Shown here piece after piece: positions 29,401 through 57,016 of a stretch of DNA of 64,000 nucleotides. The DNA comes from Gammaproteobacteria bacterium (GTDB taxonomy: Bacteria > Pseudomonadota > Gammaproteobacteria > Steroidobacterales > PWYM01), in assembly GCA_003567855.1 (NCBI GenBank), contig PWYM01000237.1:5302-69301 (forward strand), in the 5' to 3' direction. Position numbers and translations under genes: made by a program. The notes under the pieces are model-generated. The model ran no database searches and was not told the origin of the DNA. It saw only the letters and a program-made list of their open reading frames with translations. Each line of letters begins with the position of its first letter. The stretch's first letter is position 1.

Positions 29401-29414
29401 TTGGCGCTCCGTGG

Positions 29415-32386: not shown

Positions 32387-32714
32387 TCAGCGTGCCTCCT
32401 GGCGCAAATGATCGCCCAGCAGCGCATTAAACCGCGATGCCGCGATGCGTCCGAGGCGCTCCGCGACGCCGCCGACGCGCTTGTAGCGCAGAATATCGTT
32501 GATCATGTCGCGCGAAACAAGCTTCGGGTCGGCAAACAGCTCGGTAAGCACCGGCTTGAGCTCACGCCGGTCGCGATCGCCTCCTGGCCCGCATAGAGGT
32601 GCAGGAAGCCGGGAATGTCGCCGGTGGTGTTCTCGGTGTGGATACGATCCTCGAAGTCGCGGATGGTACGCATCGCCGGTAGGCGTCGAGGAGCTGGTCT
32701 GGCGAGAGCTGCAT
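32387..32714 (-). pseudogene. Remnant of an acetoin/2-oxoacid dehydrogenase operon: E1-alpha (acoA-like) N-terminus joined to an internal AcoC-like (E2, alpha/beta-hydrolase type) segment
   Basis: MQLSPDQLLDAYRR (ATG at 32714), then a 1-nt frameshift, then MRTIRDFEDRIHTENTTGDIPGFLHLYAGQEAIATGV (E1-alpha N-terminus). At about 32563 it switches frame into ELKPVLTELFADPKLVSRDMINDILRYKRVGGV..., which matches the LKP..LFADP.LV.R.M..D.LK.KR..GV block of AcoC. TGA at 32389-32387. Confidence 0.6.
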
Positions 32715-32784
32715 GCTTCCCCCTGCAGGATCGTTCCGCCATTCTAGCCTGCACCGGTCACAACGTGAGGTTGTGGGGCGAGCC

Positions 32785-32820
32785 ATGCGTCATGGCCGCC
32801 TTAAGGCGGCCATGACGCAT
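32785..32820. repeat. Perfect 36-bp spacerless palindrome
   Basis: ATGCGTCATGGCCGCCTT|AAGGCGGCCATGACGCAT. The two 18-nt arms are exact reverse complements. It yields the same peptide (RHGRLKAAMTH) in ORFs on both strands. Confidence 0.95.
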
Positions 32821-32855
32821 CAGCCACGACGCGTGGCGCGCGGCCAGCGGATACA

Positions 32856-34520
32856 ATGCCAGGCGCCGCCCCCCAACCGGAACCGACTGGAGAGCCCTTG
32901 GCCGCCGCAGAACCGATCCAGGCCGGCGCGCTCGCGCCACTCAGGAGGCCGGTGTTCCGGGCGCTGTGGATCGCCATCTTCATCTCGTCGCTCGGCACCT
33001 GGATGCACGAGGTAGGCGCCGGCTGGCTGATGAGCTCGCTTGCCCCCGACCCGTTCATGGTTGCGCTGGTCCAGTCCGCGGTCGTGCTGCCGGGCTTCTT
33101 CCTTGCGCTGCCCGCCGGCGCGCTCGCCGACATGGTCGATCGCAGGATCTACCTGATCGTCGTGATGTGCTGGCAGATCACCGTCGCGGGGACGCTGGCG
33201 GTGATGACGGCTCTCGGGCTCGTCGACAGCCGCACGCTGCTGGCGCTGACCTTTGCGATGGGCATGGGCACCGCGATGATGATGCCTGCGTTCAGCGCGG
33301 TCATCCCCGACCTCGTGCCACGCCGCGAGCTGACCGCCGCACTGACACTCAACAGCATCGCGATGAACACCACGCGCGCGCTCGGACCGGCGCTGGCCGG
33401 TGTGCTGATCGCGATCGCCGGTCCGGCGGTGGTGTTCGCGTTCAACTCGGTCAGTTTTCTCGCGCTGCTCGCGGTGCTGATCCCGTGGCGCAACACCCAG
33501 CCGCGCAGCACGCTGCCCGGGGAACGATTCTTCGGCGCCATCCGCACCGGTCTGCGTTTCGCCGCGCAATCGCCGGCGCTCAAGGTCGTGCTGGTACGCA
33601 CGCTGGCGTTCTTCGGCATGGGCAGCGTGCTGTGGGCGTTCCTGCCACTGATCGTGCGGGAACAGCTCGGCGGCGGTCCCCAGGCCTATGGCCTCGTGCT
33701 CGGCTCGGCCGGTGCCGGTGCGGTGATCGGCGGACTCAACCTGCCCCGGCTGCGCAATCGGTTCAGCGGCGACCAGATCATGACATATGCGACCTTCACG
33801 CTCGTCACGGGGCTGATCGGTCTTGCATTCCTGCCGACCATCCCGCTGGTCGCGCTCGCGATGGTGCTCGCCGGCAGCGCATGGATCGCCGCAGTCTCCA
33901 CGCTGCAGGTCGCCGCCCAGCTCGCTTTGCCCGCGTGGGTGCGCGCGCGCGGCCTCGCAATATTCCTGACGTGCTTCATGGGTGCGATGGCACTGGGCGC
34001 GGCGCTCTGGGGCCGCGTCGCATCGCTGACCGACATCCCGACGGCGATCGTCGGTGCGTGCGTGTTCGGCATTCTCGCGTGGCTTGCGACCGCGCGGCTG
34101 CGAATCGAGCGGCATGACGAGCACGACCGCTCGCTCGCGGTCCCGGTGCCGGTACCCGAACTCGAGGTACCCGTCGCCCACGAACGCGGCCCGGTCATGG
34201 TCGAGGTCACCTACACGATTCCACCTGGCAGTGTCGCCGCTTTCCAGCGCGCGATGCGCGACGTCCGCCGCATGCGCCTGCGCAATGGCGCGGTGAACTG
34301 GAACCTCTTCCAGGACACCGCCGACAGCAGGCGCTGGACCGAGGTCTTCATCGACGACACGTGGCTGTCACACCTGCGCCAGCACCATCGCCTGACGGTC
34401 GAGGACCGCGCGATCAAGGCGCACGCCGACACCTTTCACGTCGGCGACGGCCCGCCGCACGTGCGGCACATGATCGCGCGCAACCCGCGCAAGCGCCGAC
34501 GGCGCTGGCAGTGGCTGTGA
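32856..34520 (+). CDS. MFS transporter with an extra about 130-aa C-terminal soluble domain
   Basis: About 12 TM helices beginning LAPLRRPVFRALWIAIFISSLGTWM, then a non-membrane tail (VMVEVTYTIPPGSVAAFQRAMRDVRRMRLRNGAVNWNLFQD...RWTEVF). Alternative upstream and downstream starts are possible. Confidence 0.8.
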   Translation: MPGAAPQPEPTGEPLAAAEPIQAGALAPLRRPVFRALWIAIFISSLGTWMHEVGAGWLMSSLAPDPFMVALVQSAVVLPGFFLALPAGALADMVDRRIYLIVVMCWQITVAGTLAVMTALGLVDSRTLLALTFAMGMGTAMMMPAFSAVIPDLVPRRELTAALTLNSIAMNTTRALGPALAGVLIAIAGPAVVFAFNSVSFLALLAVLIPWRNTQPRSTLPGERFFGAIRTGLRFAAQSPALKVVLVRTLAFFGMGSVLWAFLPLIVREQLGGGPQAYGLVLGSAGAGAVIGGLNLPRLRNRFSGDQIMTYATFTLVTGLIGLAFLPTIPLVALAMVLAGSAWIAAVSTLQVAAQLALPAWVRARGLAIFLTCFMGAMALGAALWGRVASLTDIPTAIVGACVFGILAWLATARLRIERHDEHDRSLAVPVPVPELEVPVAHERGPVMVEVTYTIPPGSVAAFQRAMRDVRRMRLRNGAVNWNLFQDTADSRRWTEVFIDDTWLSHLRQHHRLTVEDRAIKAHADTFHVGDGPPHVRHMIARNPRKRRRRWQWL

Positions 34521-34548
34521 ACGGCAATCACGGATACGGACGCCTGCC

Positions 34549-35226
34549 GTGAGCCTTGACAGGCGCGCCATCGCACGTCGCCGGTCACCGCCGGGCCGCG
34601 CGCGCCACGAACCGGTCGCCGTGCTGCTCGCCGCCGGTGCCTCGCGGCGACTGGGATTCAACAAGGCGCTGCTGTCGGACCGCGGTGCCCCGCTGGTCGT
34701 CGGGCGCATCCGGGCACTCAAGGCCGCGGGCCTGCGCGACATCAGGGTCGTCGTCGGTCGTGACTGGCTGCGCGTGGCCCGCACCGTGCGCCGCGCCGGC
34801 GCCCGCCCGGTACGCAACCCCGACTGGCGCGCGGGCATGGCAGGGAGTCTTGCCAAGGGCCTGGGCGACACCCCGCCGGGCACGCGGTGCCTGATCGCTG
34901 CGGTAGACCAGTACCGGCTGCGCGCCGAAGACTATCGCCGTATCGTTGCGCGTACCGACGCTGCCGGGCTGCGCGCAAGTGCCGCGGCATCTCCCGGCGG
35001 AGCAGGCGTGCCTGTGATGCTGCCGGCCCGATGGCGTGCACCGCTGCTTCGCGCGCGCCCTGATCCCGACCACGGCGCACGCCGGTTGCTGCGCGCGCGG
35101 GCGCGCGCCGTCAACGTGAGTGCGCTACCCCGCGCACGCGACGATCTTGACCGGCCGACAGACCTGCGACCCGGGCGTCACCGGGTGCCCCGGGATGCGC
35201 ATGACCCGCACAACCGGCACAGTTGA
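34549..35226 (+). CDS. MobA/MocA-like nucleotidyltransferase (candidate molybdenum cofactor cytidylyltransferase)
   Basis: N-terminal LLAAGASRRLG..KALL (NTP_transf_3 signature) and a C-terminal DDLDRPTDL (DIDTPEDL-like) motif. The 3' tail overlaps moaE by about 116 nt. Confidence 0.7.
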   Translation: MSLDRRAIARRRSPPGRARHEPVAVLLAAGASRRLGFNKALLSDRGAPLVVGRIRALKAAGLRDIRVVVGRDWLRVARTVRRAGARPVRNPDWRAGMAGSLAKGLGDTPPGTRCLIAAVDQYRLRAEDYRRIVARTDAAGLRASAAASPGGAGVPVMLPARWRAPLLRARPDPDHGARRLLRARARAVNVSALPRARDDLDRPTDLRPGRHRVPRDAHDPHNRHS

Positions 35227-35644
35227 CCCAGCCTGAATCGCCGTCGACGTAGAACTCTTTCTTCCAGATCGGCAGGCGGTGCTTGACCTCATCGATGATG
35301 TAGCGACATGCGGCGAACGCCGCATCGCGGTGCCGGGCAGTGACGCCGACCCAAACCGCGACTTCGCCGAGTTCGAGATCGCCGGTGCGGTGACTGCAGC
35401 GCGCATCGAGGATATCGAAACGCGCCAGCGCCTCGGCGATAATGCGATCGCCTTCGCTGATGCAGATCGGCGCATGTACCTCGTAATGCAGCGCGCACAC
35501 CTCGCGGCCCTCGTTGCGGTCGCGCACCCGCCCCTCGAACGACGCATAGCCGCCCGCGCGCGCGTCGTCGAGCGCCGCCTGCAGCGTCGCGATATCGAGT
35601 GCCGAAGCGGTCACCGACATGCGTGCGGTCTGCTCCAAACTCAA
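35111..35644 (-). CDS. moaE: Molybdopterin synthase catalytic subunit
   Basis: FEGRVRDRNEGREV..LHYE and DEVKHRLPIWKKEFYVDGDSGWV are typical of MoaE. Position 35644 is a TTG start; ATG at 35620 is the alternative. It has an extended C-terminal tail. Confidence 0.85.
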   Translation of the reverse strand: MSLEQTARMSVTASALDIATLQAALDDARAGGYASFEGRVRDRNEGREVCALHYEVHAPICISEGDRIIAEALARFDILDARCSHRTGDLELGEVAVWVGVTARHRDAAFAACRYIIDEVKHRLPIWKKEFYVDGDSGWVNCAGCAGHAHPGAPGDARVAGLSAGQDRRVRGVAHSR

Positions 35645-35895
35645 CCTCCTGCCACCGGTGGAAAAAACAGCACGCGGTCACCCTCGGCGAGCGGTGAATG
35701 CCAATCGGATAACGTATCGTTCACCGCCACCTTGCAGCGTTCCGCGTGCTCTGCGAATCCATGACGTGCGGCGAGCTCCTGATAAAGCGCTGCCGGCGTC
35801 TCGGCAGCGGTCTCGACCGTCTCCCGGTCGGTGCCGGCCTGCTCGCGGAACACCGCGAAGTACTCGGCGGTCACGGCTTTAACCGCGGCGCTCAT
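35641..35895 (-). CDS. moaD: Molybdopterin synthase sulfur-carrier subunit
   Basis: 84 aa ending ...FFPPVAGG (the C-terminal Gly-Gly). ATG at 35895 overlaps the moaC stop (ATGA). Confidence 0.85.
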
Positions 35896-36440
35896 GCAGG
35901 GCCACCCCCCGTGTGCCACGACGCGGTGCCGTGACCGGCTTCGTCATCGTCCCGGGTATGGTCGAAGTCGCGGCGCCCCCCCTGCTTGGCGAGCAGCTCG
36001 GTGCGTTCGATGACGATCTCGTGCGACAGCGCCTTGCACATGTCATAGACCGTCAGCGCGGCGACGCTGGCCCCGGTCAGCGCCTCCATCTCGACGCCGG
36101 TGCGATGCGTGACGGCGACTTCGCAGGTGATTTCCAGGTGGCGGTCCCCGGACCAGTCGATGTGCACGTCAACGCGCTCGAGCGGCAGTGGATGGCAGAA
36201 CGGCACGAGCTCGTGCGTACGCTTCGCGGCCATCACGCCCGCGACGATCGCGGTGTGGACGATCGGCCCCTTCGGACCCGACAGCGACTGCGCCCGGAGC
36301 GTTTGCGCCACGTCCGCCGGAAACGCGACCAGCGCCCGTGCCCGCGCTGACCGCCGTGTGGCGCGCTTGCCGCCGACGTCGACCATGGTCGGACGGTCGG
36401 CCGCATCCACGTGCGAGAGCGTCGTGCGGTGTTCGTTCAT
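35892..36440 (-). CDS. moaC: Cyclic pyranopterin monophosphate synthase
   Basis: [25 protein letters not shown]...[34 protein letters not shown] is the conserved MoaC core. Confidence 0.9.
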
Positions 36441-40756: not shown

Positions 40757-42310
40757 TCAGCCGCGCGCGGTGACGGCCTCGATCAGCGTCGGTTCGCCGG
40801 CGGACAGCGCTCGCGCCAGCGCCGCGTGAAAACCGTCGGCGTCGTCGGCACGCACGGCTGCGACGCCGTGGCCCCGCGCGAGCTGCACCCAGTCCAGTGC
40901 CGGGCGCGAGAGGTCGAACAGCGCTCGCCCGCACGGATACCCGCCACCGCCGAGCGCATCCAGTTCCATGTCGAGGATCGCATAGCGGCGGTTGGAGACA
41001 ATCACGACGACGACCGGCAGGCGCTCGCGCGCCAACGTCCACAGCGCCTGCAGCGTGTACATCGCGCCGCCATCGCCGTGCACGCAAAGCACCGGTCGGT
41101 CCGGGCCCGCGAGCTGCGCACCCACCGCCAGCGGCAGGCCCTGGCCGATGGACCCTCCGGTCAGCGCCAGCCAGTCATGCGGCGGCGCACCGGCAGTCGC
41201 CTTGTACAGCGCGGCACCGGCGGTCGTAGCCTCGTCGACGACGATCGCCTCGGGCGGCAACAGGTGCGCGACCGAGGCTGCGACCGCATCCGCGGTAAGT
41301 GCGCCTGACGGCGCCGGCGGGCGCAGTGCGGATGCGGTTCCGGTCGGTTCACGCGCGCAGCCGAGCGCATCGACAAGCGCCTCGAGCGTCTGGTGTGCCG
41401 CAGCGTCGCGGCCGCCGAGGTCGATGCGTGACGCGTCGGCCGGCGCCATGCGCCCGGGCTGCCCGGGATACGCGAACAGCGACGCCGGGTCCGCAGCCCC
41501 CAGCAGGAGCAGGTGCCGGGTGCCGTCGAGCTGGGCCCGCGCGGCATCGACCCGGTAGGCGAGCCGCCGCGGCATCACGACGCCGGCGCCGCGTCTCAGG
41601 CGCGGCGGAAAGGTTTCCAGCAGCAGTCGGCAACCGGTGGTCGCGGCCACCCGCCCCGCCATGGTCAGCGAGGCCTCGTCGAGTGCGGGACCACCGAGCA
41701 GCAGCGCGGTGTGCTCTCCGCCACCACGAAGGGCGGTGACGGCCGCGTGCAGTGCGTCCGCGTCAACCGGCACTCGCGGCCGGGACGGCGGCGCGTGGCG
41801 CACCGGTTCGGCATCCCCCCACGCATGATCGGCCGGGACGCGCAGCGTGGCCACGCCGCCGTTGGCGTCGCGCGCCCGCGCCAGCGCCAGCGCCCCGGCC
41901 CGTGGCAGTCCGGCCGCGTCCGGCGACGCGCCGACCCAGTCGCTCATCGGCCGGGCGAGCGCCTCGATATCGGCTGTCAGCGGTGCATTCAGCCCGACAT
42001 GCGCGGTCGCATGATCACCGACGATATTCAGCAGCGGCGTCGCTGCGCGCCGCGCGTTGTGCAGGTTGGCCAGCCCGTTCGCAAGCCCCGGGCCGAGGTG
42101 CAGCAGGGTCGCGGCAGGGCGGCGCTGCATGCGCGCGTAACCGTCGGCGGCCCCGGTGACGACGCCCTCGAACAGACCAAGCACCGGGCGCACCTGCGGC
42201 ACCGAGTCGAGCGCCGCGACCAGGTGCATTTCCGACGTCCCGGGGTTTGCGAACAGCGTGTCGATGCCGGCATCGGCGAGCGTCGCCAGCAGGGCGCGTG
42301 CGGCATTCAT
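40757..42310 (-). CDS. Thiamine-diphosphate-dependent enzyme (acetolactate-synthase-large-subunit-like)
   Basis: N-terminal LLATLADAGIDTLFANPGTSEMHLVAAL and the ThDP-binding motif HGDGGAMYTLQALWT...VIVSNRRY. The ATG at 42310 overlaps the upstream stop. The substrate is unknown. Confidence 0.82.
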   Translation of the reverse strand: MNAARALLATLADAGIDTLFANPGTSEMHLVAALDSVPQVRPVLGLFEGVVTGAADGYARMQRRPAATLLHLGPGLANGLANLHNARRAATPLLNIVGDHATAHVGLNAPLTADIEALARPMSDWVGASPDAAGLPRAGALALARARDANGGVATLRVPADHAWGDAEPVRHAPPSRPRVPVDADALHAAVTALRGGGEHTALLLGGPALDEASLTMAGRVAATTGCRLLLETFPPRLRRGAGVVMPRRLAYRVDAARAQLDGTRHLLLLGAADPASLFAYPGQPGRMAPADASRIDLGGRDAAAHQTLEALVDALGCAREPTGTASALRPPAPSGALTADAVAASVAHLLPPEAIVVDEATTAGAALYKATAGAPPHDWLALTGGSIGQGLPLAVGAQLAGPDRPVLCVHGDGGAMYTLQALWTLARERLPVVVVIVSNRRYAILDMELDALGGGGYPCGRALFDLSRPALDWVQLARGHGVAAVRADDADGFHAALARALSAGEPTLIEAVTARG

Positions 42311-43320
42311 GCCCGCCGGGTTCGCGCAGTCTCCACCGTGTCGCCGGCGAGCCGGTCGCGCCAGGCCCCGCGCGCGGCACGATACTCGGCATCGAGCGTG
42401 GCGACGACGTCGCCGGCCGGCGTGACGTCGCGTATGGCACCGAGTCCCTGGCCCGCACCCCAGATATCGCGCCACGCCTTGCTGTCCTTGAGCGCGCTCC
42501 CAGCGTCGGCGAAATTCATCGCGCTCTTGTCGGCGCCGGGCAGCCGGTCGGGGTCCAGGCCCGCGGCGCGGATGCTCGGTGCCAGGTAGTTGCCCGGAAC
42601 ACCGGTGAACGTCGAGGTGTAGACGATGTCCTCGGCGGCGCCCTCAACGAGCATGCGCTTGTAGGTGTCAGGTGCATTGGCTTCGGCTGTCGCGATGAAG
42701 CGGGTGCCCACGTAGGCGAGGTCGGCCCCCATCACCTCGGCGGCAAGCACCGCCTCACCATGTGCGATCGCCCCCGCGAGCAGCAGCAGGCCGTCAAACT
42801 CGGCGCGCACCTCCTGGAGCAGCGCGAAGGGGCTCAGCATGCCCGCATGGCCGCCGGCGCCCGCACACACGAGGATGAGCCCGTCTACGCCCGCTGCAAT
42901 AGCCTTGCGCGCATGGCGCAGCGTCGTGACGTCATGCAGCACCAGTCCGCCGTATCCGTGCACGGCGTCGACGACGACTGACGGCTCACGCAGGCTGGTG
43001 ATCACGACGGGGACGCGATGGCGCACGCAGGCTTCGAGGTCATGCTCGAGCCGGTCGTTGGTGTGGTGGACGATCAGGTTGACCGCGTACGGCGCGATGG
43101 GCTCGTCCGGGCGCGCCGCGCGGGCCTCAGCCAGTGCCGTATCGATACGGGTCAGCCATTCGTCGAGCGCTTCGGCCGGACGCGCGTTGAGCGACGGGAA
43201 GGCGCCGACAATGCCCGCCGTGCATTGCGCGATCACGAGTTCCGGCGTCGAGACGATGAACATCGGCGCGCCTACCACCGGCAGGCGCAGCGAGGACTTG
43301 AGTTCCTGGATCGTCGGCAT
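42307..43320 (-). CDS. Nitronate monooxygenase (NMO/2-nitropropane dioxygenase, FMN) family protein
   Basis: LRLPVVGAPMFIVSTPELV and LILVCAGAGGHAG are typical of PF03060-type enzymes. The start is trimmed to MPTIQELK (43320). Confidence 0.8.
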   Translation of the reverse strand: MPTIQELKSSLRLPVVGAPMFIVSTPELVIAQCTAGIVGAFPSLNARPAEALDEWLTRIDTALAEARAARPDEPIAPYAVNLIVHHTNDRLEHDLEACVRHRVPVVITSLREPSVVVDAVHGYGGLVLHDVTTLRHARKAIAAGVDGLILVCAGAGGHAGMLSPFALLQEVRAEFDGLLLLAGAIAHGEAVLAAEVMGADLAYVGTRFIATAEANAPDTYKRMLVEGAAEDIVYTSTFTGVPGNYLAPSIRAAGLDPDRLPGADKSAMNFADAGSALKDSKAWRDIWGAGQGLGAIRDVTPAGDVVATLDAEYRAARGAWRDRLAGDTVETARTRRA

Positions 43321-43528
43321 GGGTCTCCCTTCCTCCGGAGCGGCTTCGTGGCGCAGCGCCGAAACCCTATCACGGGCACCGACCGTCGCAGCGCCCCGTC
43401 GCGAGGGCCGGACGACGTCGGTACCCACAGAGACCATGAATGTTGCGAATCAACAACATCAGACGATGCTGCATTGCCAGATACGGGGCGTCCCGGATCG
43501 ACCTTGTTGGAAATTTCCCAGCTTGCAA

Positions 43529-43561
43529 TTGACGGCACCCGCGTCGCGTGATTGTATACAA
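43529..43561 (+). promoter_or_regulatory. Candidate promoter/operator of TBDR-3: TTGACG hexamer plus palindrome TTGTATACAA
   Basis: TTGACG (43529-43534), then 17 nt, then the perfect 10-bp palindrome TTGTATACAA (43552-43561). The identical palindrome recurs at 53322-53331. A further palindrome, GGAAATTTCC, lies at 43509-43518. Confidence 0.5.
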
Positions 43562-43653
43562 AAGCGTTTTAGGGAGGGATGCCGCGGTCGTGCCGGGCCA
43601 GGAGGGCTCGCGGGCGGCGTGCACTGATGCCATCAAGCCGTGAGGATCGAACC

Positions 43654-46155
43654 GTGAACGAGTACGTCTACACCCGTCGTCCGTTGCGCGCCGCCGTCAG
43701 GCGCGCGTTGTTCATTTCCGGCGTGGGCGCCTGCCTGGCAGCGCCGACCTACGCACAGGCCCCCGCGCAGCAGCCGGAGACGCGCGCCGTCGACGAGATC
43801 GTCGTCACCGCCCGCCAGCGCGCAGAGCTGCTGCAGGACGTGCCCGCGTCGGTGACGGCGTTCACCGCGGCCGACATCGCCGACGCCGGCATCGACCGTG
43901 CCGAAGACTTCATCGGGCTGACCCCTGGCGTGTCGATGATCAACAGTACCGAGGCCGGTGATCTGCAGGTCAACATCCGCGGCATCAACACCTCGCGCGA
44001 TGCCGAGACCAACTTCGCTTTCATCGTCGACGGCGTACTGCTGACGAACCCGAACGCCTTCAACCAGGAATTCGCGCATATCGAGCAGATCGAGATCGTG
44101 AAGGGCCCGCAGGGCGCGCAGTACGGGCGCAACGCGTCGGCCGGCGCGATCATCGTCACCACACGCGAACCCGGCCCGGAACTCGAGGGCCGCGTGCGGG
44201 CCGGTTACGGCAACAACAACGCGTTCACCGCCAATGCCGCGTTCTCCGGCCCACTGGTCGAGGACACGATGTACGGCGGGATCAACTTCGCCTATCGCGA
44301 CAGCGACGGGCACTTCCGCAATGTGACCACCGGCAACAAGGACGTCGATGACTACAACGAGTGGTCCATCGACGGCCGCCTGATCATCGAACCCACTGAT
44401 GCGCTGAAGCTCGACTTCAAGGCGCGCTACAGTGAAATCGACAGCGGCGCGATCGGTTTCAACGCGGCGTTTGCGATCCCCGGACTGGTCGAGGGCCTGG
44501 AAGGCGTGTTCGGCCGACCGGCCACCGAAGCTTTCATCGACGTGAACGAGCACCAGTTCGTCTACCAGAACAACGTCGTGCCACAGAACGAACAGGAAAA
44601 CATCAACCTGTCGCTGAAGGCCGATTACGACCTCGGCTTCGCGATGCTCACCGGCATCGTCGCGTACAACGACCAGGAGCAGTTCTTCCTGACCGACGGC
44701 ACGAGCGCGGCGTTCGGCATCTATTTCGCAGAGCCCACGTGCCTGGCCAGCCTCGAGCAGACGGCCGCGGAGTTCGAACAGCCGCCGCCGTTTTTCAACT
44801 TCGGCAGTCCGGATGCTCAGCTCCTGCCCGCGTACTCGAACACGACCTGCGACGGTTACCAGTACCAGGTCCGCAACCAGGAGGACCTGTCGCTGGACGT
44901 ACGCCTGACCTCGATGGGTGACGGCCCGCTGCGCTGGATCGCCGGCGCGAACTTCGTCGACATCGACCGGACGGTGATCGTCTCGCAGGGTGCCGACCTC
45001 GACCAAGGCTTCCTGCTGCAGCCTTTCGTGCCGGCCGACGGCCCTAATCCCACCGACCTGCTCTACCACGACGAACTCGACAACAAGGTCTGGGCGGCAT
45101 ACGGCAGCATTGACTACGACCTGCGGGACGACCTGGAGCTGTCGCTCGCGCTGCGCTACGACCGCGAGCGTCGCAAGGTCAGCAACCGCGTGCCCACCGA
45201 CGCGGTCGCCCCGTTCATCAATCCGCTTGGGATCGACAACCCGCCGATCAATCCGGCGCTGCTGTTCGCCGACAGCATCGAAGACCGCAGCCGCACCTTC
45301 AGCCAGTGGCAACCCAAGGTCAGCGTGAGCTGGTCGGCCACCGACGAGCTGAGCCTGTACGCGACCTACGGCGTCGGCTTCCGCAGCGGCGGCTTCAACT
45401 CGCAGGGCGTGGAGGCCACGATCGAGGTGTTCTACACCGACGCTTTCGGCGCCCAGCTGTTCAACGCCCGCGACGAGTTCGAAAAGGAAGTCTCCAAGTC
45501 TTTCGAGGTCGGCTTCAAGGCCGAACTGCTTGACCGGCAGCTGCGCATTAACGGCGCCGCTTACCGCACCAAGGTCGACGACATGCAGTTCTTCAACTTC
45601 TTCGCCGGCCCGTTCGGTCTGCTGCGCGTCGTGACCAACATCGACGAGGTCGAGATCGACGGCATAGAGCTGGACTTCCGCTACAACGTCAACGACTACT
45701 TCACGCTCTATGGTGGCGCCTCCTACCTGGACGGCGAGATCAAGCGCAACACCAACCGCCCGTTCACCGTCGGCAATGACGTCCCGATGGCGCCCAACTA
45801 CACCTTCAACCTTGGCGGCCAATTCACTGTCCCTGTCACCCCCGACATGGACTTCGTCGCCCGTACCGACTGGATCGGCACCGGCAAGACCTGGTTCTCG
45901 GAGGTACAGAACAACACCGTACCGACGCTCTTCGGACTCGACGGCGACTTCTCCCGCACTCGGCGAGATGCGTTCGAGGTCGTCAACGCACGGTTCAGTC
46001 TGCAGTCCGAGAACTGGCGTGCAACGCTTTGGGCACGTAACCTGTTCGACAAGAAGTACCTGCAGGAAGTCATTCCGGCGCCGGAGTTCGGGGGCTCTTT
46101 CATCCATGACTCGCCACGCCGCAGTTACGGCATCGAACTGAGCTACATGTTCTGA
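43654..46155 (+). CDS. TonB-dependent receptor (TBDR-3)
   Basis: Signal peptide (...CLAAPTYAQA), plug (DEIVVTARQRAELLQDVPASVTAF, IEIVKGPQGAQYGRNASAGAI), barrel, and terminal ...IELSYMF. The GTG at 43654 has GAGGA 7 nt upstream; ATG at 43627 is the alternative. Confidence 0.9.
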   Translation: MNEYVYTRRPLRAAVRRALFISGVGACLAAPTYAQAPAQQPETRAVDEIVVTARQRAELLQDVPASVTAFTAADIADAGIDRAEDFIGLTPGVSMINSTEAGDLQVNIRGINTSRDAETNFAFIVDGVLLTNPNAFNQEFAHIEQIEIVKGPQGAQYGRNASAGAIIVTTREPGPELEGRVRAGYGNNNAFTANAAFSGPLVEDTMYGGINFAYRDSDGHFRNVTTGNKDVDDYNEWSIDGRLIIEPTDALKLDFKARYSEIDSGAIGFNAAFAIPGLVEGLEGVFGRPATEAFIDVNEHQFVYQNNVVPQNEQENINLSLKADYDLGFAMLTGIVAYNDQEQFFLTDGTSAAFGIYFAEPTCLASLEQTAAEFEQPPPFFNFGSPDAQLLPAYSNTTCDGYQYQVRNQEDLSLDVRLTSMGDGPLRWIAGANFVDIDRTVIVSQGADLDQGFLLQPFVPADGPNPTDLLYHDELDNKVWAAYGSIDYDLRDDLELSLALRYDRERRKVSNRVPTDAVAPFINPLGIDNPPINPALLFADSIEDRSRTFSQWQPKVSVSWSATDELSLYATYGVGFRSGGFNSQGVEATIEVFYTDAFGAQLFNARDEFEKEVSKSFEVGFKAELLDRQLRINGAAYRTKVDDMQFFNFFAGPFGLLRVVTNIDEVEIDGIELDFRYNVNDYFTLYGGASYLDGEIKRNTNRPFTVGNDVPMAPNYTFNLGGQFTVPVTPDMDFVARTDWIGTGKTWFSEVQNNTVPTLFGLDGDFSRTRRDAFEVVNARFSLQSENWRATLWARNLFDKKYLQEVIPAPEFGGSFIHDSPRRSYGIELSYMF

Positions 46156-48804: not shown

Positions 48805-50334
48805 TCAGTGGGCTGCGCGGTCGACCATTTGCAGCTGCTCGTAGACCGGGACGCGGTTCGCAACGCCGAACCCGGCCACGCCATCACGGTACGCGAACAG
48901 GTCGATCTGTTCGACCAGGAACAGTGCCGGGACGCGTTCGCGTATTTCCCGGGCCAGTTCACGCAACAGCGCTGCGCGACGGTCCGGATCCATCTCGCGC
49001 TGGGCGGCCTCAAGCAGCGGCATCAGTTCGGGGTCGCAGTAGAACGGCTGGCGCTTGGCGCACGAGTAGTACTCCATCGGACGCATCACGTCGTTGTATG
49101 GCGCCGCGTTCCAGGCGAGACCGAACAGGTCGGCCCGCAGCCTACCGGCGAGATAGTCGCGCAACCACGCCGAGAACGGTCGAACCCGCAGGCGCGCCCG
49201 CACGCCGACCCGTGCGAGATCCTGCACCACGACCTGGTAGATCTGTGATGCGCCCGGTGCGCCCCCGCCTGCGACCTCGATGGACAACGTGAGGCCCTCG
49301 CCGTGTCCGGCCTCGGCGAGCAGAGCGCGCGCGGCGTCCGGATCGTGGGGAAACGGTGCAAGCTCCGGATCGTGTCCGACTGTCACCCGGGAGGCCGGCT
49401 GGCTGGAGGGCTCGACCAGGCCCTGCATCAGGATCCCGGCAATGGCCTCGCGGTTGACCGCGAGGTTCAGCGCGCGGCGCACGCGCGGGTCGGCGACCGG
49501 TGACGGTGGGTCGCGCTCGACGTTGAACGCGAGCGCCATGACCTGCATCGACGGGCTGTGTCGGACATGGAAACCGCGCGCCCGCAGAAAATCCACATCC
49601 TCGATGTCGACCATCGTCAGGTCGATCTCGCGCGATCGCAGCGCCTGGACGCGCACCGCCTGGTCGGGAAGCGCGATCACCTCCAGCCCCGAAAGCTGCG
49701 GACGCCGCCAGCCGTCATCGCGCGCGACGAGGTGTACGCGGCGGTCGGACTCGCTCCAACGCTCGAGCCGGAACGGGCCGGTACCCGATGGCGCGCGCGC
49801 GAAACCGTCCGGGCCGAGTTCGGCCCATGCCCGGGGCGGAACCATGAACACCGCCGACAGCCGTTGCGGCAGGATCGCGTCGGGTGCTTCGGTGATCACA
49901 TCCACGGTATGGGTGTCGACGACCTCCACCCGCGCGACATGGCGGACCTCGTTGCCAATCACCGTGCGCGCCCCGGCGCTCGAGCGCAGCCAGTCGAAAA
50001 CCGCGACCACCGCCTCGGCGTCGAAAGGCTCACCGTTATCGAAGTGCACGCCGGCACGCAGCTCGAAGCGCCAGCGGTCAGTATCGACGAGCGACCAGTC
50101 GGTTGCGAGCGCGGGCTGCAGGTCGCCCTGCGCGTCGAGTCGCGTCAGCGCGTCGAACATCGCCGCCCACGTGTAGCTTGACGGCGTGCCGTTCGCGCCA
50201 TAGGGGTTGCCCATCGTCGGCGGCAGGTTCGACACGCCGAAGCGCAGCGTGTCGGCCGGTGCGGCCGCGTACCAGGCGCACAGCACCAGCACCATGACGG
50301 CACGCGCCGCCAACGGACCGTGACGGCTATGCAC
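48805..50334 (-). CDS. Family-5 (Opp/Dpp/Nik-type) periplasmic solute-binding protein with no adjacent ABC permease or ATPase
   Basis: Signal-like N-terminus (AARAVMVLVLCAWYAAAPA), then LRFGVSNLPPTMGNPYG...ALATDWSLVDTDRWRFELRAGVHFDNGEPFDAEAV, typical of SBP_bac_5. The start is uncertain (GTG 50334 or ATG 50295). The track start at 50574 overlaps the upstream gene. Confidence 0.78.
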   Translation of the reverse strand: MHSRHGPLAARAVMVLVLCAWYAAAPADTLRFGVSNLPPTMGNPYGANGTPSSYTWAAMFDALTRLDAQGDLQPALATDWSLVDTDRWRFELRAGVHFDNGEPFDAEAVVAVFDWLRSSAGARTVIGNEVRHVARVEVVDTHTVDVITEAPDAILPQRLSAVFMVPPRAWAELGPDGFARAPSGTGPFRLERWSESDRRVHLVARDDGWRRPQLSGLEVIALPDQAVRVQALRSREIDLTMVDIEDVDFLRARGFHVRHSPSMQVMALAFNVERDPPSPVADPRVRRALNLAVNREAIAGILMQGLVEPSSQPASRVTVGHDPELAPFPHDPDAARALLAEAGHGEGLTLSIEVAGGGAPGASQIYQVVVQDLARVGVRARLRVRPFSAWLRDYLAGRLRADLFGLAWNAAPYNDVMRPMEYYSCAKRQPFYCDPELMPLLEAAQREMDPDRRAALLRELAREIRERVPALFLVEQIDLFAYRDGVAGFGVANRVPVYEQLQMVDRAAH

Positions 50335-50375
50335 AGCCTCCCACCCGGGCGCGCGACGTTGCGTAATGACGCGGG

Positions 50376-50840
50376 TCAGGCCGAAGCCTGGCGCCGCGCC
50401 GCGTCGTGGACGGCCTGACGGACGCGGTCGTAGGTGCCGCATCGACAGATGTTGGTCATCGCCTCGTCGATGTCGGCGTCGCTCGGCGCAGGGTTGCGCT
50501 CGAGCAGCGCGACGGCGGCCATGATCATGCCACTCTGGCAGTAGCCGCACTGGGGAACCTGCGCGGCGATCCACGCCTGCTGCACCGGATGATCACCGTC
50601 GGCCGACAGGCCTTCGATGGTGCGTACGTCGCGCCCCTGTGCTGCCGACACCGGCAGTACACAGGCGCGGGTGGCACGCCCGTCGACATGCACGGTGCAG
50701 GCGCCGCACAGCCCCTGGCCGCAGCCGAACTTGGAACCGGTCATGCCGAGGCGGTCCCTCAACACCCAGAGCAGTGGCATGCGGGGGTCGGCCTCGACTT
50801 CCCGCGACTCGCCGTTGATCTTCAGTGTGTACTTCTGCAC
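50376..50840 (-). CDS. (2Fe-2S)-binding small subunit of a molybdenum hydroxylase (IorA/aldehyde-oxidase type)
   Basis: [15 protein letters not shown] and [11 protein letters not shown] are the two [2Fe-2S] Cys clusters. 154 aa. Confidence 0.9.
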
Positions 50841-50879
50841 TTCAGAGTCTCCTCAGCCACTGTGACTGTGAGCGCGGAG

Positions 50880-53048
50880 TCAGGCCAGGCGCCAGCCCTG
50901 GCGCTCGAGCGGCAGCTCGCGGATGCGAATACCGGTGGCCGCATGGATCGCATTGGTGACCGCCGGTGCCGCCGGGGGCAGCCCGGGTTCACCGACACCC
51001 CCCATCTCATGACCACTCTCGATGATGTGGGTCTCGACCGGTGGCGCGTGTCGCAGCAGCAGGCTTCGATAGTCGTTGAAGTTCTGCTGCTGGACGCTGC
51101 CGCCGCGCACGTCGATCGCGCCGTGCATCATCGCCGTCAGGCCGTAGAGGATACCGCCCTCCATCTGCGCGCGGATGTTGTCCGGATGGATCGCGCGCCC
51201 GCAGTCGACCACGCAGTAGAAACGCTCGAGCTTCAGCTGCCTCTCGGCGGACACGCTGACCTGGGCGACCTGTGCGACGATCGACCCGTAGGAATCGGTC
51301 AGGGCAACGCCCCGGCCCCGACCGTCACCCAGCGGTCCGTCCCAGCCCGACACCTCTGCGAGCTTCTCGAGCACCGCGCGGATGCGTGAATCCTGCAGGT
51401 GCCTGAGTCGCCACTCGAGCGGATCCACGCCCGCCGCATGCGCGATCTCGTCGATGATCGACTCGAGGAAAAAGCCGTTCTGGGAGTGTGACACCGCGCG
51501 CCAGACCCCGATCGGCACCGGCGTCGGGTGCGGTACCCATTCGACGTGAGAATTCGCCATCCGGTAGGAGTGATCGTTGAGTCCGGCGATCACTGTCGGG
51601 TCGACGCGTCCGCCGAGCATGCCCGGGCGCATCGCCTCCAGAATCGACGCACCGCCAACACGCAGGTGCAGCGCGTTGATCCCGCCATCGTCATCGAGCG
51701 CGGCGCGGAAGCGCAGCGCATAAGCTGGCCGATAGAAGTCGTGGCGTATGTCCTCCTCGCGGCTCCAGATCAGCTTGACCGGAACACCTGGAATCTCGCG
51801 CGCGATGGACACCGCCTGCACGACGAAATCGGTCTGCCAGCGCCGTCCGAAACCGCCCCCGGAGAACGTTCGGTGCATGGTGACATCTGCAGCATCGATG
51901 CCGAGCGCGCGCGCCGCGGCGTCCCGCGACTGCATCGGCGACTGGGTACCGGACCACACCTCGCAGCGCCCGTTTTCCACCAGTGCGGCGCAGCTCATGG
52001 GTTCCATCGTCGCATGGGCCAGGTACGGCGCCTTATACACCGCGTCGAGCACGCGGTCGCCGGCCGCCGCGAGTGCGCTGTCGACGTCACCGTCACGACC
52101 TGCCTCGAGCACCTGCTCGCCCGGTTGCGCAAGCTGCGCGACGAGCGTATCCATCATGGCGTCGCTTTCGAAGTCCGCGGCATCACCCTCGTCGAACTCC
52201 ACCGGCAGCTCGGTGAGCGCGCGGCTGGCCTCCCACCAGCTGTCGGCGACCACCGCGACGGCATCGGCCAGTGCGATCACCTCGTAGACACCCGGCATGC
52301 CGATGACGGCGTCCCGCTCCACGCTTCGCACGCGGCCACCGAAGACCGGACAGGCGCGAATCGCGGCCACCTTCATTCCGGGGCGCTGCACATCGACCGC
52401 GTATTCGGCCTCGCCCCGCACCATCGCCGGCACGTCCTGTCGCGGCATGCTGCGCCCGATGTAGCGCAGGTCTGCGTCGTCGCGCAGCGGCGGATCGTCC
52501 GGCACCGGGACGTTCGACGCCGCTTCGACAAGTTCGGCGAAATCGAGCGCGCGGTCGCTGGCTGCGTGCACAACCTTGCTGTCGCGCGTGTCGCATTCGC
52601 TGGCCGGCACGCCCAGCTTCTGTGCACCCGCGGTGACCAGCTGCACACGCGCGGCCGCCCCGACCCTGCGCAGCAGGTCGAAGTAGCCGGTCGCGCCCAT
52701 GCTGCGACCGGTCGCCTGCAGGTTCTTCTGGGGATTCGTATAGATCTCGCCGGCGCCGGAAAAGCCGACCTTCAGCCGCGACCAGTCGGCCCCCATTTCG
52801 TCGGCTATGTACATCGCGTGAGTGGTCAGGATGCCCTGGCCCAGCTCGGCGTCCGGGGTGAGGATCGCGACCGTGCCATCAGCTTCGATGCGCAGGTACG
52901 CGGTCTGCAGGGCCGACTGTTCCGGCGCGAATCCGTTACCACCGCGCGCCCGCACCGGCAGCGCGAACGCGAGCAGCGTGCCGGCGCCCGCAGCCTTCAG
53001 CATGCTGCGGCGCGTGAGTGTCAGCGCATAGTCGGCAGCGTTTTCCAT
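50880..53048 (-). CDS. Molybdopterin-binding large subunit of a xanthine-dehydrogenase-family hydroxylase (IorB-type), with a Tat signal
   Basis: The start is trimmed to [34 protein letters not shown] (twin-arginine motif). It has about 720 aa of aldehyde oxidase/xanthine dehydrogenase a/b-hammerhead and Moco-binding domains. Confidence 0.88.
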
Positions 53049-53300: not shown

Positions 53301-53331
53301 TTGACGCACACCCATCACGCATTGTATACAA
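53301..53331 (+). promoter_or_regulatory. Candidate promoter/operator of TBDR-4: TTGACG hexamer plus palindrome TTGTATACAA
   Basis: TTGACG (53301-53306), then 15 nt, then TTGTATACAA (53322-53331). The 10-mer is identical to the one at 43552-43561, and the shared left flank is CGC-(G)T/A-TTGTATACAA. Confidence 0.5.
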
Positions 53332-53482: not shown

Positions 53483-55723
53483 ATGAAAAGCCTATACCGC
53501 ACGCCCCTCGCGCTCGCCGTCGCGGTCGCGTTGACCAGCCCGCTGGCCGCCTACGCGCAGCAGCCGGACGCCCCTGTCGCGCAGCAGCGCGCTCTGGACG
53601 AGGTGGTGGTCACCGCACAGCGGCGCCAGGAATCAGTTCAGGACATTCCGATTGCGGTTTCGGCATTCGACGCCGACCAGCTCGGCCGGCTTGGCGTCAC
53701 CGAGACGCTCGACATGACCCGGCTGGTGCCGAACTTCATCGGCAGCAGCAACACCGGACTCGGCACGGCCAACGTTTATTCGATTCGCGGCCTGAACAAC
53801 ACCGAATCCATTCCGACTTTTGACCCGCCGGTCGGCAGCTACATCGACGACATCTACGTCTCGCGCCAGAACGCGAACAACTTCACGCTGTTCGACGTCG
53901 ACCGCATCGAGGTGCTGCGCGGACCACAGGGCACGCTGTTCGGACGCAACACCACCGGTGGTGCGGTCAACGTGATCATGGCGCGGCCGTCCGAAGAGTT
54001 TGGCGGCTACGTGGAAGTCGGTTACGGCCGTTTCAACCGCAAGACCGCACGCGCGAGCGTGGACCTGCCGGTCAACGACCAGTTCCTGACCAAGATCAGC
54101 GGCTACTGGATCGAGGACGATGGCTGGCTCTACAACGAGACCACCGGCGAGACGCTCAATTTCGAGGATAACAAAGGCGTGCGGGTCGATCTGCGCTGGC
54201 TGCCCACCGACGAGATCATCTGGGATGTCGCGGTCGATTACGTAGACACGCAGAACGCCGCGATCGCCGGCACCCCCGTTGGCAGCAACTTCGTCACCCA
54301 GACGGGGCTGCGTCGCGGTGAAAACCTCAGCGACTTCGTCGATCTCACCGGCAACAAGTCGTTCATCCCGACAGGCAACCTGGTACGCGCCTGGTCCATC
54401 ACGTCACGTCTCAACATCGCGACGGCGCTCGGTGATCTCGAGCTGATCACCGGCTACCGGGACATGAACCAGAAGTACATGCTCGACTTCTTCAACAACC
54501 CCGCGCCGTTCGGTGGATTCGTCATAGCCAACGACGGCGAACACACGCAGTTCAGCCAGGAAATCAAGCTCGCCGGCAGCACCGACGACAACCGCATCGA
54601 CTACGTCGTCGGCGTGTTCTACCTCGACGAGGACAACGACACCGACTTCGCCGACGTGTTCAACCTCGGGTTCCCGGCGCTGATTTCCGACCGCACGCTC
54701 GACAACAATACCGAGACGTGGGCGGTGTACGGCCAGGCCGACTTTCACCTCAACGACGCCTGGACGGCGACCGTCGGCCTGCGCTACACCGAGGAAGAAC
54801 AGGACATACGGCTGTTCTCGAACCAGCCTAACTTCGTCGGCGCGAGTTTCGACTCGAGCGACCTGGAAGCCGTCGGCGTACCGCTCAGCGACAAGACCAC
54901 GCTGTGGACGCCGCGCGTCGCGCTTCAGTACAACATCGACGACGACACCAACGTCTACGCATCGGCGACGCGCGGGTTCAAGTCCGGCGGCTGGAACGCG
55001 CGAAACAACGACCCGCTGTTGGTGCTGCCGTTCGGACCGGAGCGCGTCTGGTCGTACGAGGCCGGCATGCGCAGCCAGTGGATGGACAACCGCGTGCGAT
55101 TCAACGCCACCGCGTTCTGGACCGACGTCAGCGACTTCCAGCTGCCCACCGCGACCACGGATGCGCAGGGCGGTATCAACTTCGTGACGCGGAACTTCGC
55201 CGACCTCGAGGTCAAGGGCCTCGAGGTCGAGCTGCTGGCGCTCGCGACCGACCGGCTCACGATCTACGCCAACCTCGGCTGGCAGGACTCCGAGTACAAG
55301 AACCTCGATCCCGCGATCCGCGACCAGCAGCAGCTGTGTCTCGAAGAGGCGCTGCAGTGCGGCGAGGGCATCATCGCACCTGACGGCAGCGTGGCCGACC
55401 CGGTGCGTGCGCCGAACTTCACCATTGCCGCCGGCGGCGACTACCGATTGCCGCTCGGGCCGCGGCTGGAGCTCGTGCCGTCGCTGTCGATCACCCGCTA
55501 CGGCACCCACTCGATCGATACCGGGAACGCTTCCTTTCCCGGCGGCGTGTCCTACACGAACGTCAACGGCGGTATCGCCCTCGAGGATGTAGACGGCACC
55601 TGGGCGGTACGCGCGAACTGCAAGAACTGCACGAGCCGCGTACAGCCCAATTCGTCGCTCGCCGGGGGGCTCTACTACAACCAGCCTCGGACCTGGACGA
55701 TAAACTTCCGCTACAACTTCTGA
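53483..55723 (+). CDS. TonB-dependent receptor (TBDR-4)
   Basis: ATG at 53483 preceded by GGAGGGAAATCTGAGG. Signal peptide (...SPLAAYAQQ), plug (DEVVVTAQRRQESVQDIPIAVSAF, IEVLRGPQGTLFGRNTTGGAV), and terminal ...INFRYNF. Confidence 0.92.
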   Translation: MKSLYRTPLALAVAVALTSPLAAYAQQPDAPVAQQRALDEVVVTAQRRQESVQDIPIAVSAFDADQLGRLGVTETLDMTRLVPNFIGSSNTGLGTANVYSIRGLNNTESIPTFDPPVGSYIDDIYVSRQNANNFTLFDVDRIEVLRGPQGTLFGRNTTGGAVNVIMARPSEEFGGYVEVGYGRFNRKTARASVDLPVNDQFLTKISGYWIEDDGWLYNETTGETLNFEDNKGVRVDLRWLPTDEIIWDVAVDYVDTQNAAIAGTPVGSNFVTQTGLRRGENLSDFVDLTGNKSFIPTGNLVRAWSITSRLNIATALGDLELITGYRDMNQKYMLDFFNNPAPFGGFVIANDGEHTQFSQEIKLAGSTDDNRIDYVVGVFYLDEDNDTDFADVFNLGFPALISDRTLDNNTETWAVYGQADFHLNDAWTATVGLRYTEEEQDIRLFSNQPNFVGASFDSSDLEAVGVPLSDKTTLWTPRVALQYNIDDDTNVYASATRGFKSGGWNARNNDPLLVLPFGPERVWSYEAGMRSQWMDNRVRFNATAFWTDVSDFQLPTATTDAQGGINFVTRNFADLEVKGLEVELLALATDRLTIYANLGWQDSEYKNLDPAIRDQQQLCLEEALQCGEGIIAPDGSVADPVRAPNFTIAAGGDYRLPLGPRLELVPSLSITRYGTHSIDTGNASFPGGVSYTNVNGGIALEDVDGTWAVRANCKNCTSRVQPNSSLAGGLYYNQPRTWTINFRYNF

Positions 55724-56010: not shown

Positions 56011-56880
56011 CTATTCTCCAGCGAGCTGCAGCAGGCGGCGCGCCTGCTTCAGGTGCGGAATATCGAGCATTGCGCCGTCCATCTGTACCGCGCCGGCCCC
56101 GTCCGAGCGTTCGAACAGCGCGACGACGCGCCGGGCCCAGTCGACCTCGTCTGCCGTCGGGGTAAAGGCATCGTTGATCACCTCGACCTGCGCCGGATGG
56201 ATTGCGAGCATGCCGGTGAACCCGTCGCGGCGCGCACGTTCGCAGTAACCGCGCAACCCCTCGGTGTTCCGGAAGTCGGTGTAGACGGTTTCTATGGCCT
56301 GCGCCTCGCAGGTTGCCGCCGCGGCGAGCGTCAGCGAACGCGCGAGCTGGTACGTGAAAGTCCAGGCGCCGGTCTCATCGCGGTTGCGCATCGCGCCCAG
56401 GTCCACCGCCAGGTCTTCGGCCCCCCACGTGACGCCGCGAAGCCGGTCACCGATCGATCGAAGCTCGCCCATGGAGAAGAGCGACTCGGCGGTTTCGGTG
56501 AGCACCGGCACAAGTGGCACGGAACCGCGGGTCAGCCCGTGCGCGACCTCGAGCACCTCGAGGTAATGATTCAACGCGACCAGGTCCCACGGGCTTGAGA
56601 TTTTCGGCACCATGATGCCATCCGGCTGACCGGGCATGACCGCGACCAGGTCATCGAGCGCGAGCGCCGAAGCCAGCGGGTTGATGCGCACCCATAGCGG
56701 CGCGGCCCGCTGGCCTCGCGGCCGCGCGGCCAGTACGTCGTGGACCAGGGCGCGCGCCCGGGGCTTGGCCTCGGGCAGCACGGCATCCTCCAGGTCGAGG
56801 ATGACCGCATCGGCACCGGTGCCGTCCACCTTGCCGAGCTTCTTTTCGCTGTCTCCCGGGATGAACAACCACGAACGCAT
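56011..56880 (-). CDS. HpcH/HpaI aldolase / citrate-lyase beta (CitE)-like acyl-CoA lyase
   Basis: MRSWLFIPGDSEKKLGKV..GADAVILDLEDAV is the CitE-family N-terminus. The start is trimmed to 56880. Confidence 0.82.
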   Translation of the reverse strand: MRSWLFIPGDSEKKLGKVDGTGADAVILDLEDAVLPEAKPRARALVHDVLAARPRGQRAAPLWVRINPLASALALDDLVAVMPGQPDGIMVPKISSPWDLVALNHYLEVLEVAHGLTRGSVPLVPVLTETAESLFSMGELRSIGDRLRGVTWGAEDLAVDLGAMRNRDETGAWTFTYQLARSLTLAAAATCEAQAIETVYTDFRNTEGLRGYCERARRDGFTGMLAIHPAQVEVINDAFTPTADEVDWARRVVALFERSDGAGAVQMDGAMLDIPHLKQARRLLQLAGE

Positions 56881-57016
56881 GCACTCGCTCCGGTACGGAC
56901 TCGCACGCAGTCTAGCATCGGGGCCGAAGCTGCAGCGGATTCCAATGCGCCCCCACACCTGCAGGCACCGTCCGATCTGCTAGGCTCTGCAGCGCAATCC
57001 GCCACGGAGACCGTCG

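Follow-up and report, generated by a model that had tools for sequence, protein, structure and literature searches.

Two TonB-dependent receptor genes of a gammaproteobacterium share a conserved palindrome, probably the operator of a FadR/FCD-type GntR regulator

The substrates of most TonB-dependent receptors (TBDRs) other than those for iron are not known, especially in uncultured sediment bacteria such as the Woeseiaceae. A stretch of 64,000 nucleotides from a Gammaproteobacteria bacterium (contig PWYM01000237.1, positions 5,302 to 69,301, assembly GCA_003567855.1; the window in the following) raises the question whether two such orphan receptors, TBDR-3 and TBDR-4, are under common control, and by which factor. 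The same 10-nt palindrome, TTGTATACAA, is found upstream of both genes. The original prediction, made from the letters of the window, had likened the two copies to GntR/HutC-type operators and hinted at a regulon comprising the receptors and the oxidative enzymes divergent from them. In our analysis the palindrome (consensus ATTGTATACAAT) is probably the operator of a GntR factor of the FadR/FCD subfamily, encoded outside the window, which would control both receptors as an uptake arm. The shared regulon of two different receptor genes is supported in this form, and TBDR-3 and TBDR-4 very probably belong to one nutrient-uptake regulon, as judged from sequence comparison.

Two copies of a rare palindrome

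The candidate operator sites and the receptor genes are:

43552-43561, no strand assigned: operator site 1, TTGTATACAA, extended to GATTGTATACAAAA at 43550-43563; 102 nt 5' of the TBDR-3 GTG start
53322-53331, no strand assigned: operator site 2, TTGTATACAA, extended to CATTGTATACAACG; 161 nt 5' of the TBDR-4 ATG start
43654-46155, plus strand: TBDR-3, TonB-dependent receptor of 833 aa, Pfam Plug (PF07715) and TonB_dep_Rec_b-barrel (PF00593)
53483-55723, plus strand: TBDR-4, TonB-dependent receptor of 746 aa, Pfam PF07715 and PF00593

Sequence and coordinates of both copies, as well as their distances to the start codons (GTG at 43654 and ATG at 53483), were exactly as predicted. Both sites are intergenic, each between divergent genes, and they are the only two exact copies in the whole window, which has a G+C content of 67%; no exact copy arose in 100 dinucleotide-preserving shuffles of it. 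A position weight matrix (PWM), trained on related loci only with the window left out, gave 24.9 bits to site 1 and 22.1 bits to site 2, the third-ranked match of the window reaching 8.9 bits; the scan revealed no further operator site in the window above noise. Among 30 mononucleotide shuffles of the window one attained 22 bits, and one site taken alone is thus not decisive.

Both receptors show the N-terminal Plug and the 22-strand barrel domain (Pfam), and the identities predicted for the other genes around the sites were upheld by the same database. The 833-aa gene call of TBDR-3 is found also in the near-identical contig SLGX01000114.1 (GCA_007136465.1), and the exact 746-aa protein of TBDR-4 is on record (P0147). 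TBDR-4 groups with TBDR-1 of the window and not with TBDR-3, the two being of different TBDR families; neither of them reached a substrate subfamily cutoff of NCBIfam.

Conservation and enrichment in related genomes

Orthologs of TBDR-3 with their 10-kb flanks were collected from 31 species-representative genomes, all of them metagenome-assembled genomes (MAGs) labelled Woeseiaceae, Steroidobacteraceae or Gammaproteobacteria. The 10-mer, exact or with one mismatch, lies 100-150 nt 5' of the TBDR-3 ortholog in 17 of the 31; locus L005 contributes the variant TTGTATACCG. The 8-bp core TGTATACA is retained upstream of orthologs with 43-74% protein identity, some of which share only 43-52%.

Three promoter alignments, none of them selected by motif, point to the same block at a background identity of 59-71%. 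In the TBDR-3 promoters of the window and its six closest relatives (A1, mean identity 60%) the longest invariant block is TGATTGTATAC; in the TBDR-4 promoters of L003-L005 (A2) TGTATACAA is invariant, and in ten TBDR-3 promoters of Steroidobacteraceae (A3) it is TTGTATACAAC. The last group has in addition an invariant near-site, TGTATACC, 74 bp upstream, and between the two an invariant promoter-like pair TTGCGG-N18-TATGAT. TBDR-4 orthologs with 90% (L076), 65% (L077) and 58% identity (L078) carry the site at -161, -199 and -213, respectively; a 56% identical homolog in another gene context is without it. In the metagenome loci described below, all TBDR-3 orthologs with a covered upstream region have a site of their own. 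Phylogenetic footprinting, suggested as a check together with the original prediction, therefore finds the site invariant or conserved upstream of the orthologs of both receptors.

The motif is strongly enriched in the related loci, which were fetched by protein homology and not by motif: 1.03 Mb contain 99 exact cores TGTATACA, as compared to about 2.6 expected from base composition. Two independent locus sets have 39 and 56 copies, while the remaining 63 palindromic 8-mers of that composition average 1.5, and nearly every copy of the core is intergenic.

Chance occurrence of the 10-mer, or a hairpin or riboswitch in the leader RNA, would be the simplest alternatives. The first finds some ground in the 22-bit score reached among the mononucleotide shuffles, against which stand the empty dinucleotide shuffles and the conservation of the sites across orthologs, both of which make the pair non-random, as had been predicted. 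An RNA element was rejected: the leader regions have no significant Rfam family and no stable hairpin, their folding energy being no better than that of shuffles (z = 0.46 and 0.29). Because of the conservation data, both readings are effectively refuted.

In L001-L072 another palindromic 8-mer, ATGATCAT, ranks second in frequency within its composition class: each locus set has 25-26 copies, where the mean is 1.5; this is probably a coding-sequence effect (Met-Ile-Ile/Met codons).

Receptors and divergent genes

The genes divergent from the receptors are:

42307-43320, minus strand: flavoenzyme of the nitronate-monooxygenase (NMO) family, Pfam NMO, divergent from TBDR-3; 337-aa gene call in L073
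40757-42310, minus strand: thiamine-diphosphate (ThDP) enzyme, Pfam
48805-53048, minus strand: operon of SBP_bac_5, [2Fe-2S] subunit and molybdenum-hydroxylase (Mo-hydroxylase) large subunit, Pfam
50880-53048, minus strand: Tat-exported Mo-hydroxylase large subunit, Pfam MoCoBD_1/2 and Tat signal, divergent from TBDR-4

Starts were revised to 43320 for the NMO and 42310 for the ThDP enzyme, following the near-identical contig of GCA_007136465.1, and to 53048 for the Mo-hydroxylase, following the methionine of the Tat signal. With these starts the NMO begins about 232 nt from site 1 and the Mo-hydroxylase about 274 nt from site 2.

An uptake-and-oxidation regulon, in which the sites control the NMO/ThDP and the Mo-hydroxylase/ferredoxin/SBP operons as well, had been predicted. 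Such a regulon is compatible with operators for the receptors and differs in extent only; we consider the extension unlikely. It would agree with the location of both sites in divergent intergenic regions and with their minus-strand reading TACAAT, a good -10-like hexamer facing the divergent gene at each site, and the Mo-hydroxylase would fit thematically to the cyclic-amide and N-heterocycle hydrolases of the conserved regulon discussed below. On the other hand, the sites are 232 and 274 nt away from the divergent starts, the minus-strand hexamer has no -35 match, and the divergent partners are replaced or absent while the receptors retain the site. The gene opposite TBDR-3 is the NMO in the window, L004 and L005, GlnRS in L003, another gene in L001/L002 and LeuCD in Steroidobacteraceae; the ThDP enzyme gene is missing in L004, and the TBDR-4 ortholog keeps its site without an adjoining Mo-hydroxylase/SBP operon in L003-L005 and L078. 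The divergent pair of the Steroidobacteraceae (L007-L015 and L029, ~8300-9800, minus strand) is a genuine leuC/leuD, with LeuC at 697 bits against a cutoff of 510, and the sharing of the intergenic region with a biosynthetic leuCD operon speaks for a site that serves only the receptor. As the neighbours are not conserved while the TBDRs keep the site, we assign the sites to the receptors and not to the divergent genes, and a place for the oxidative operons in the predicted regulon is not supported.

A molybdenum-cofactor cluster (MoaB-like, MobA-like, MoaE, MoaD/ThiS, MoaC; window 31708-36440), syntenic in L073 and close relatives, is found 15-20 kb from the Mo-hydroxylase.

TBDR-4 is followed (window 56011-57466) by genes for an HpcH/CitE-like CoA-ester lyase and a MaoC/mesaconyl-CoA-hydratase-like protein, a pair present also in L003 (18498-19951), L076 (2769-5671) and L078 (8456-11279). 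In these relatives a gene for a Rieske ring-hydroxylating oxygenase is interposed between those of TBDR-4 and the lyase; it is missing from the window. The lyase and MaoC-like genes are not preceded by an operator.

A GntR gene co-localised with the sites

In Steroidobacteraceae the short region that separates a family-III CoA-transferase gene from a divergent operon is taken up by two sites spaced 64 bp apart. The operon encodes an HMG-CoA-lyase-like protein (HMGL), hydantoinase A and B, a protein of 209-215 aa, an isochorismatase-like hydrolase and a second CoA-transferase. The 209-215-aa protein is a GntR regulator with an FCD effector domain (Pfam, 7e-18 and 4e-19). A metagenome scan with the GntR alignment gave 35 loci, and all 13 of those that reach the 5' end of the operon have both the paired sites and the GntR+FCD gene inside the operon. 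Second-tier GntR orthologs with 69-75% identity, from MAGs labelled only Steroidobacteraceae or Gammaproteobacteria, adjoin the same enzyme cluster; here the site lies 35-47 nt 5' of the GntR start (10/10 loci), and more sites are found in front of the genes for a TRAP transporter and an allantoinase-like amidohydrolase. The linked GntR regulator that was to be sought elsewhere is thus found, as an FCD-type protein, together with the sites in related genomes. The combination of sites and regulator gene is the standard comparative-genomics signature of a putative autoregulated local repressor and its regulon. Paired sites are 63-65 bp apart in 23 cases, about six helical turns, which suggests cooperative binding in these relatives.

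On metagenome contig L045 the GntR gene is followed by sites at 2409 and 2545, 136 bp apart (~13 helical turns), which precede the gene of another TonB-dependent receptor; this protein has 787 aa and an identity to TBDR-3 of only 23%. It seems that, depending on lineage, the regulon takes in different receptors.

The candidate regulator reached none of the NCBIfam equivalog cutoffs, the best being phnR_burk with 111 of 271 bits. With the exception of the HMG-CoA lyase subfamily the regulon enzymes, too, are below equivalog cutoffs. Their likenesses include caprolactamase/hydantoinase-like HyuAB, allantoinase- or dihydropyrimidinase-like and PuuE-like proteins, biuret-hydrolase-like isochorismatases, glutarate-type CoA-transferases and HMG-CoA lyase. 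Because the conserved enzymes resemble cyclic-amide hydrolases, the transported compound or effector may, with low confidence, be a cyclic amide or N-heterocycle. A literature search for this combination of enzymes found nothing relevant.

Comparison to characterised GntR operators

Operators of the FadR subfamily have the consensus boxes TKGT/ACMA with GTM-N0-1-KAC, and those of HutC the consensus GTMTAKAC, with 4 nt between GT and AC (PMC4494728). TTGT-AT-ACAA at both sites of the window fits the FadR/FCD consensus, and location and ortholog conservation of the two sites are as expected for such operators. The spacing of 2 nt between GT and AC and the co-localised regulator, which has an FCD and not a UTRA domain, are not those of HutC; of the predicted GntR/HutC-type operator, the GntR assignment stands and the HutC assignment does not. 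FadR-subfamily operators (DgoR, ExuR, LldR, PdhR, GlcC; PMC4494728) are likewise A/T-rich palindromes with TKGT/ACMA and GTM-N0-1-KAC in promoters of catabolic and transport genes, and the effectors of the subfamily are typically carboxylic acids (PMC4494728). Most characterised members differ by having 3 nt between GT and AC, the motif described here being the N0 variant with 2. Sites similar to ATTGTA/TACAAT may be bound by Acinetobacter MdcY and E. coli DgoR, a parallel that is not counted as evidence here.

Searching the literature for GntR in combination with the exact 10-mer gave nothing relevant; the search with the 8-mer led to Atu1419 of Agrobacterium fabrum. This FCD-GntR repressor of the VanR group has been crystallised on its operator ATGTATACAT, where Arg45 reads G3 (PMC7797058). 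Its operators overlap or adjoin -10 boxes, with two sites per regulated region and autoregulation (PMC7797058). The motif of the window has the same 8-bp core TGTATACA in a 10-bp palindrome and so agrees with an FCD-GntR operator defined by crystallography. The FCD fold is common to Atu1419 and the candidate regulator, which aligns ungapped to residues 11-72 of Atu1419, with an identical SRTPVREAL (Arg45, Thr46, Arg49) and with Glu34 kept, so that core and Arg45 recognition helix would correspond to an operator and regulator of the Atu1419/VanR type. The two systems differ in the operator flanks (A/T in Atu1419, T/A here), in the wing tip (Gly66 in Atu1419, Asn66 in the candidate regulator), in the arrangement of sites (190 bp apart and tetramer-looped in Atu1419, pairs of ~64 bp in the relatives and single sites in the window) and in function, which is hydroxycinnamate degradation for Atu1419 and TonB receptors plus a cyclic-amide/CoA pathway here.

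The AlphaFold (AF2) model of the candidate regulator (pLDDT 88) matches best to McbR, PmiR and Atu1419, and the candidate is ortholog of none of the three. PmiR of Pseudomonas aeruginosa (PDB 7xp0/7xp1) is the closest solved relative by sequence, with a full-length alignment at E = 2e-24. It is an FCD-type GntR of similar length which represses a catabolic operon via two adjacent promoter sites; unlike what is proposed here it senses 2-methylisocitrate and controls prp genes, its reported footprints are of other sequence, and the Foldseek identity to the candidate regulator is ~28%. A precedent for the wiring, with substrate-specific receptors that do not serve iron uptake, is the alginate locus of Zobellia, where TonB receptors are co-induced with a catabolic pathway by a GntR repressor and not by Fur (PMC7641319). 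Phylum, regulator subfamily and substrate are different; in the window, regulator and pathway are not linked to the receptors. The two receptor promoters of the window have no likeness to the iron- or zinc-type boxes (Fur, Zur) common in TBDR promoters when inspected by eye against their consensus, without a formal scan.

Instead of a GntR protein, another regulator family could bind the palindrome, with the co-localisation being coincidental. In agreement with the original prediction, Pfam on about 50 ORFs detected no GntR gene in the window, the only candidates being three genes of the TetR family:

3942-4691, strand not stated: TetR gene, Pfam
14776-15453, strand not stated: TetR gene, Pfam
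15550-16212, strand not stated: TetR gene, Pfam

TetR proteins bind short palindromes, too, and the loci L001-L006 of the closest relatives are without a GntR gene just as the window is, which leaves room for one of these proteins or for an unlinked factor. The TetR genes are, however, more than 27 kb away from the sites, beside beta-oxidation genes, and no TetR gene accompanies the motif in the related loci. An exact fit to the GntR/FadR consensus and the correspondence to a solved FCD-GntR operator speak for a GntR protein, as does the site upstream of the GntR gene itself in all ten second-tier loci. An operator for another family thus seems improbable, and a FadR/FCD-type GntR remains the preferred reader of the motif.

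Position of the sites in the promoters

Upstream of both sites there is a -35-like box:

43529-43534, plus strand: -35-like box TTGACG, 17 nt 5' of site 1
53301-53306, plus strand: -35-like box TTGACG, 15 nt 5' of site 2

Both gaps agree with those given in the original prediction. In all seven orthologous TBDR-3 promoters (window and six closest relatives) TTGAC is invariant and keeps the same distance to the palindrome; the TTGACG of site 2 is retained in the 90% ortholog L076 and unrecognisable in TBDR-4 promoters further removed. When the two promoters of the window are aligned locally, the alignment runs from the TTGAC box through the palindrome. Of the predicted overlap of operator and -10, the beginning of the operator 15-17 nt after TTGAC is confirmed, whereas a recognisable -10 hexamer is not present. 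A stringent scan gave no canonical sigma-70 promoter in either intergenic region, and for this reason the overlap is argued from the conserved spacing of TTGAC. Because it starts 15-17 nt after this conserved -35-like element, the operator would cover the spacer/-10 region in the clade of the window. A repressor-like position, in or next to the core promoter, is supported by this arrangement.

It could be asked whether RNA polymerase alone reads the conserved block, as a -10 or extended -10 element. The consensus ATTGTATACAAT does hold TACAAT on both strands, TTGAC is conserved 15-17 nt upstream in the window, and the sites of the HMGL/CoA-transferase region are 5-15 nt from the start codons, as would be a -10 of leaderless mRNAs. 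A pure core promoter element is nevertheless very improbable. The invariant block of 11 nt is dyad-symmetric and longer than a -10 requires; its position relative to promoter-like elements varies, alignment A3 having the separate TTGCGG-N18-TATGAT upstream; and it occurs in phased pairs, only before one functionally coherent set of genes which includes the regulator gene.

In the divergent CoA-transferase/HMGL region of L007, L009, L010, L015, L029, L031 and many of L032-L065 (e.g. L010 13650-13850), operators lie 5-15 nt from the start codons with TACAAT facing the gene, which suggests that the mRNAs have no leader or a very short one and that their -10 box is inside the operator.

A further palindrome that had been noticed just upstream of site 1, GGAAATTTCC, is present at 43509-43518 but not conserved in the orthologous promoters. 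The NMO/TBDR-3 intergenic region of seven Woeseiaceae-like promoters has two more conserved boxes (window 43441-43462 and 43504-43510), TGTTGCGC...ACAA, with GTTGC and ACA invariant, and TGTTGG, about 63 bp apart and unrelated to the GntR motif. They could be the site of a second regulator or the NMO promoter.

Proposed mechanism and regulon

The mechanism is most likely promoter occlusion by a dimeric FCD-GntR protein, relieved by an effector. One wing-helix domain of the dimer would bind to each TTGTA half-site, and the effector-free protein would block RNA polymerase from its place in or beside the TBDR-3 and TBDR-4 core promoters. A small molecule would release the repressor, by which both receptors would be induced together; it is probably a carboxylate, or else an intermediate of the compound taken up. 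In related genomes the same motif is predicted to control the regulator's own gene, the operon of cyclic-amide-hydrolase, CoA-transferase and HMG-CoA-lyase-like enzymes, and the TRAP transporter, and for that reason the two receptors are most likely the outer-membrane uptake arm of this catabolic regulon.

Several points weigh against this interpretation. Cognate GntR+FCD linkage is seen in related genomes (the 13 operons and ten own upstream sites) and not within the window, nor does a GntR gene occur in the loci of the closest relatives L001-L006; the candidate regulator is known from related genomes, and its link to the motif is by co-localisation only. It is not an ortholog of Atu1419, to which it has a low identity of ~25% (E = 5e-9), PmiR and others being closer, and SRTPVREAL is common among GntR proteins and hence weak evidence of specificity. 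The sites of the window are single, without the auxiliary partner found in relatives: searches for phased auxiliary near-sites beside either of them gave matches at background level only, and a near-site candidate at +86 of site 2 is not kept in the ortholog locus L076. No canonical -10 hexamer is detectable at the expected spacing in either region, and in Steroidobacteraceae the operator lies just downstream of the predicted TATGAT -10, as opposed to the spacer/-10 overlap in the clade of the window. As the position of the operator relative to the predicted promoter differs by lineage and a canonical -10 is missing, the exact geometry proposed here is tentative.

A wider picture can be drawn only tentatively. 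An undescribed regulon may exist across Woeseiaceae- and Steroidobacteraceae-like Gammaproteobacteria of sediment and soil, in which TBDRs and the TRAP transporter import a cyclic amide or N-heterocycle, the ring is opened by ATP-dependent hydantoinase/lactamase-like, allantoinase-like and isochorismatase-like hydrolases, glutarate-type CoA-transferases activate the product and an HMG-CoA-lyase-like enzyme cleaves it, with the FCD-GntR as sensor. If true, this regulon is a handle by which the substrate of a pathway not yet characterised could be identified in uncultured bacteria of high abundance. As a mechanism, the regulation is conventional and belongs to ordinary bacterial gene regulation; the operator is of interest as it links two orphan receptors and, via the relatives, a defined regulator and coherent catabolic enzymes, which opens a route to the substrate.

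Other genes of the window

A third TonB-dependent receptor gene (29415-31484, minus strand) is located directly 5' of genes for a PnuC-type nicotinamide-riboside/NMN transporter and a choline-kinase-like kinase. The group (27684-31484), which resembles an uptake unit for vitamin salvage, is without a GntR site. At the left end of the window (305-3754, minus strand) a fused B12-binding/MeaB GTPase/methylmalonyl-CoA-mutase protein (IcmF-like, 1149 aa) is encoded, whose gene adjoins a TetR gene and beta-oxidation genes.

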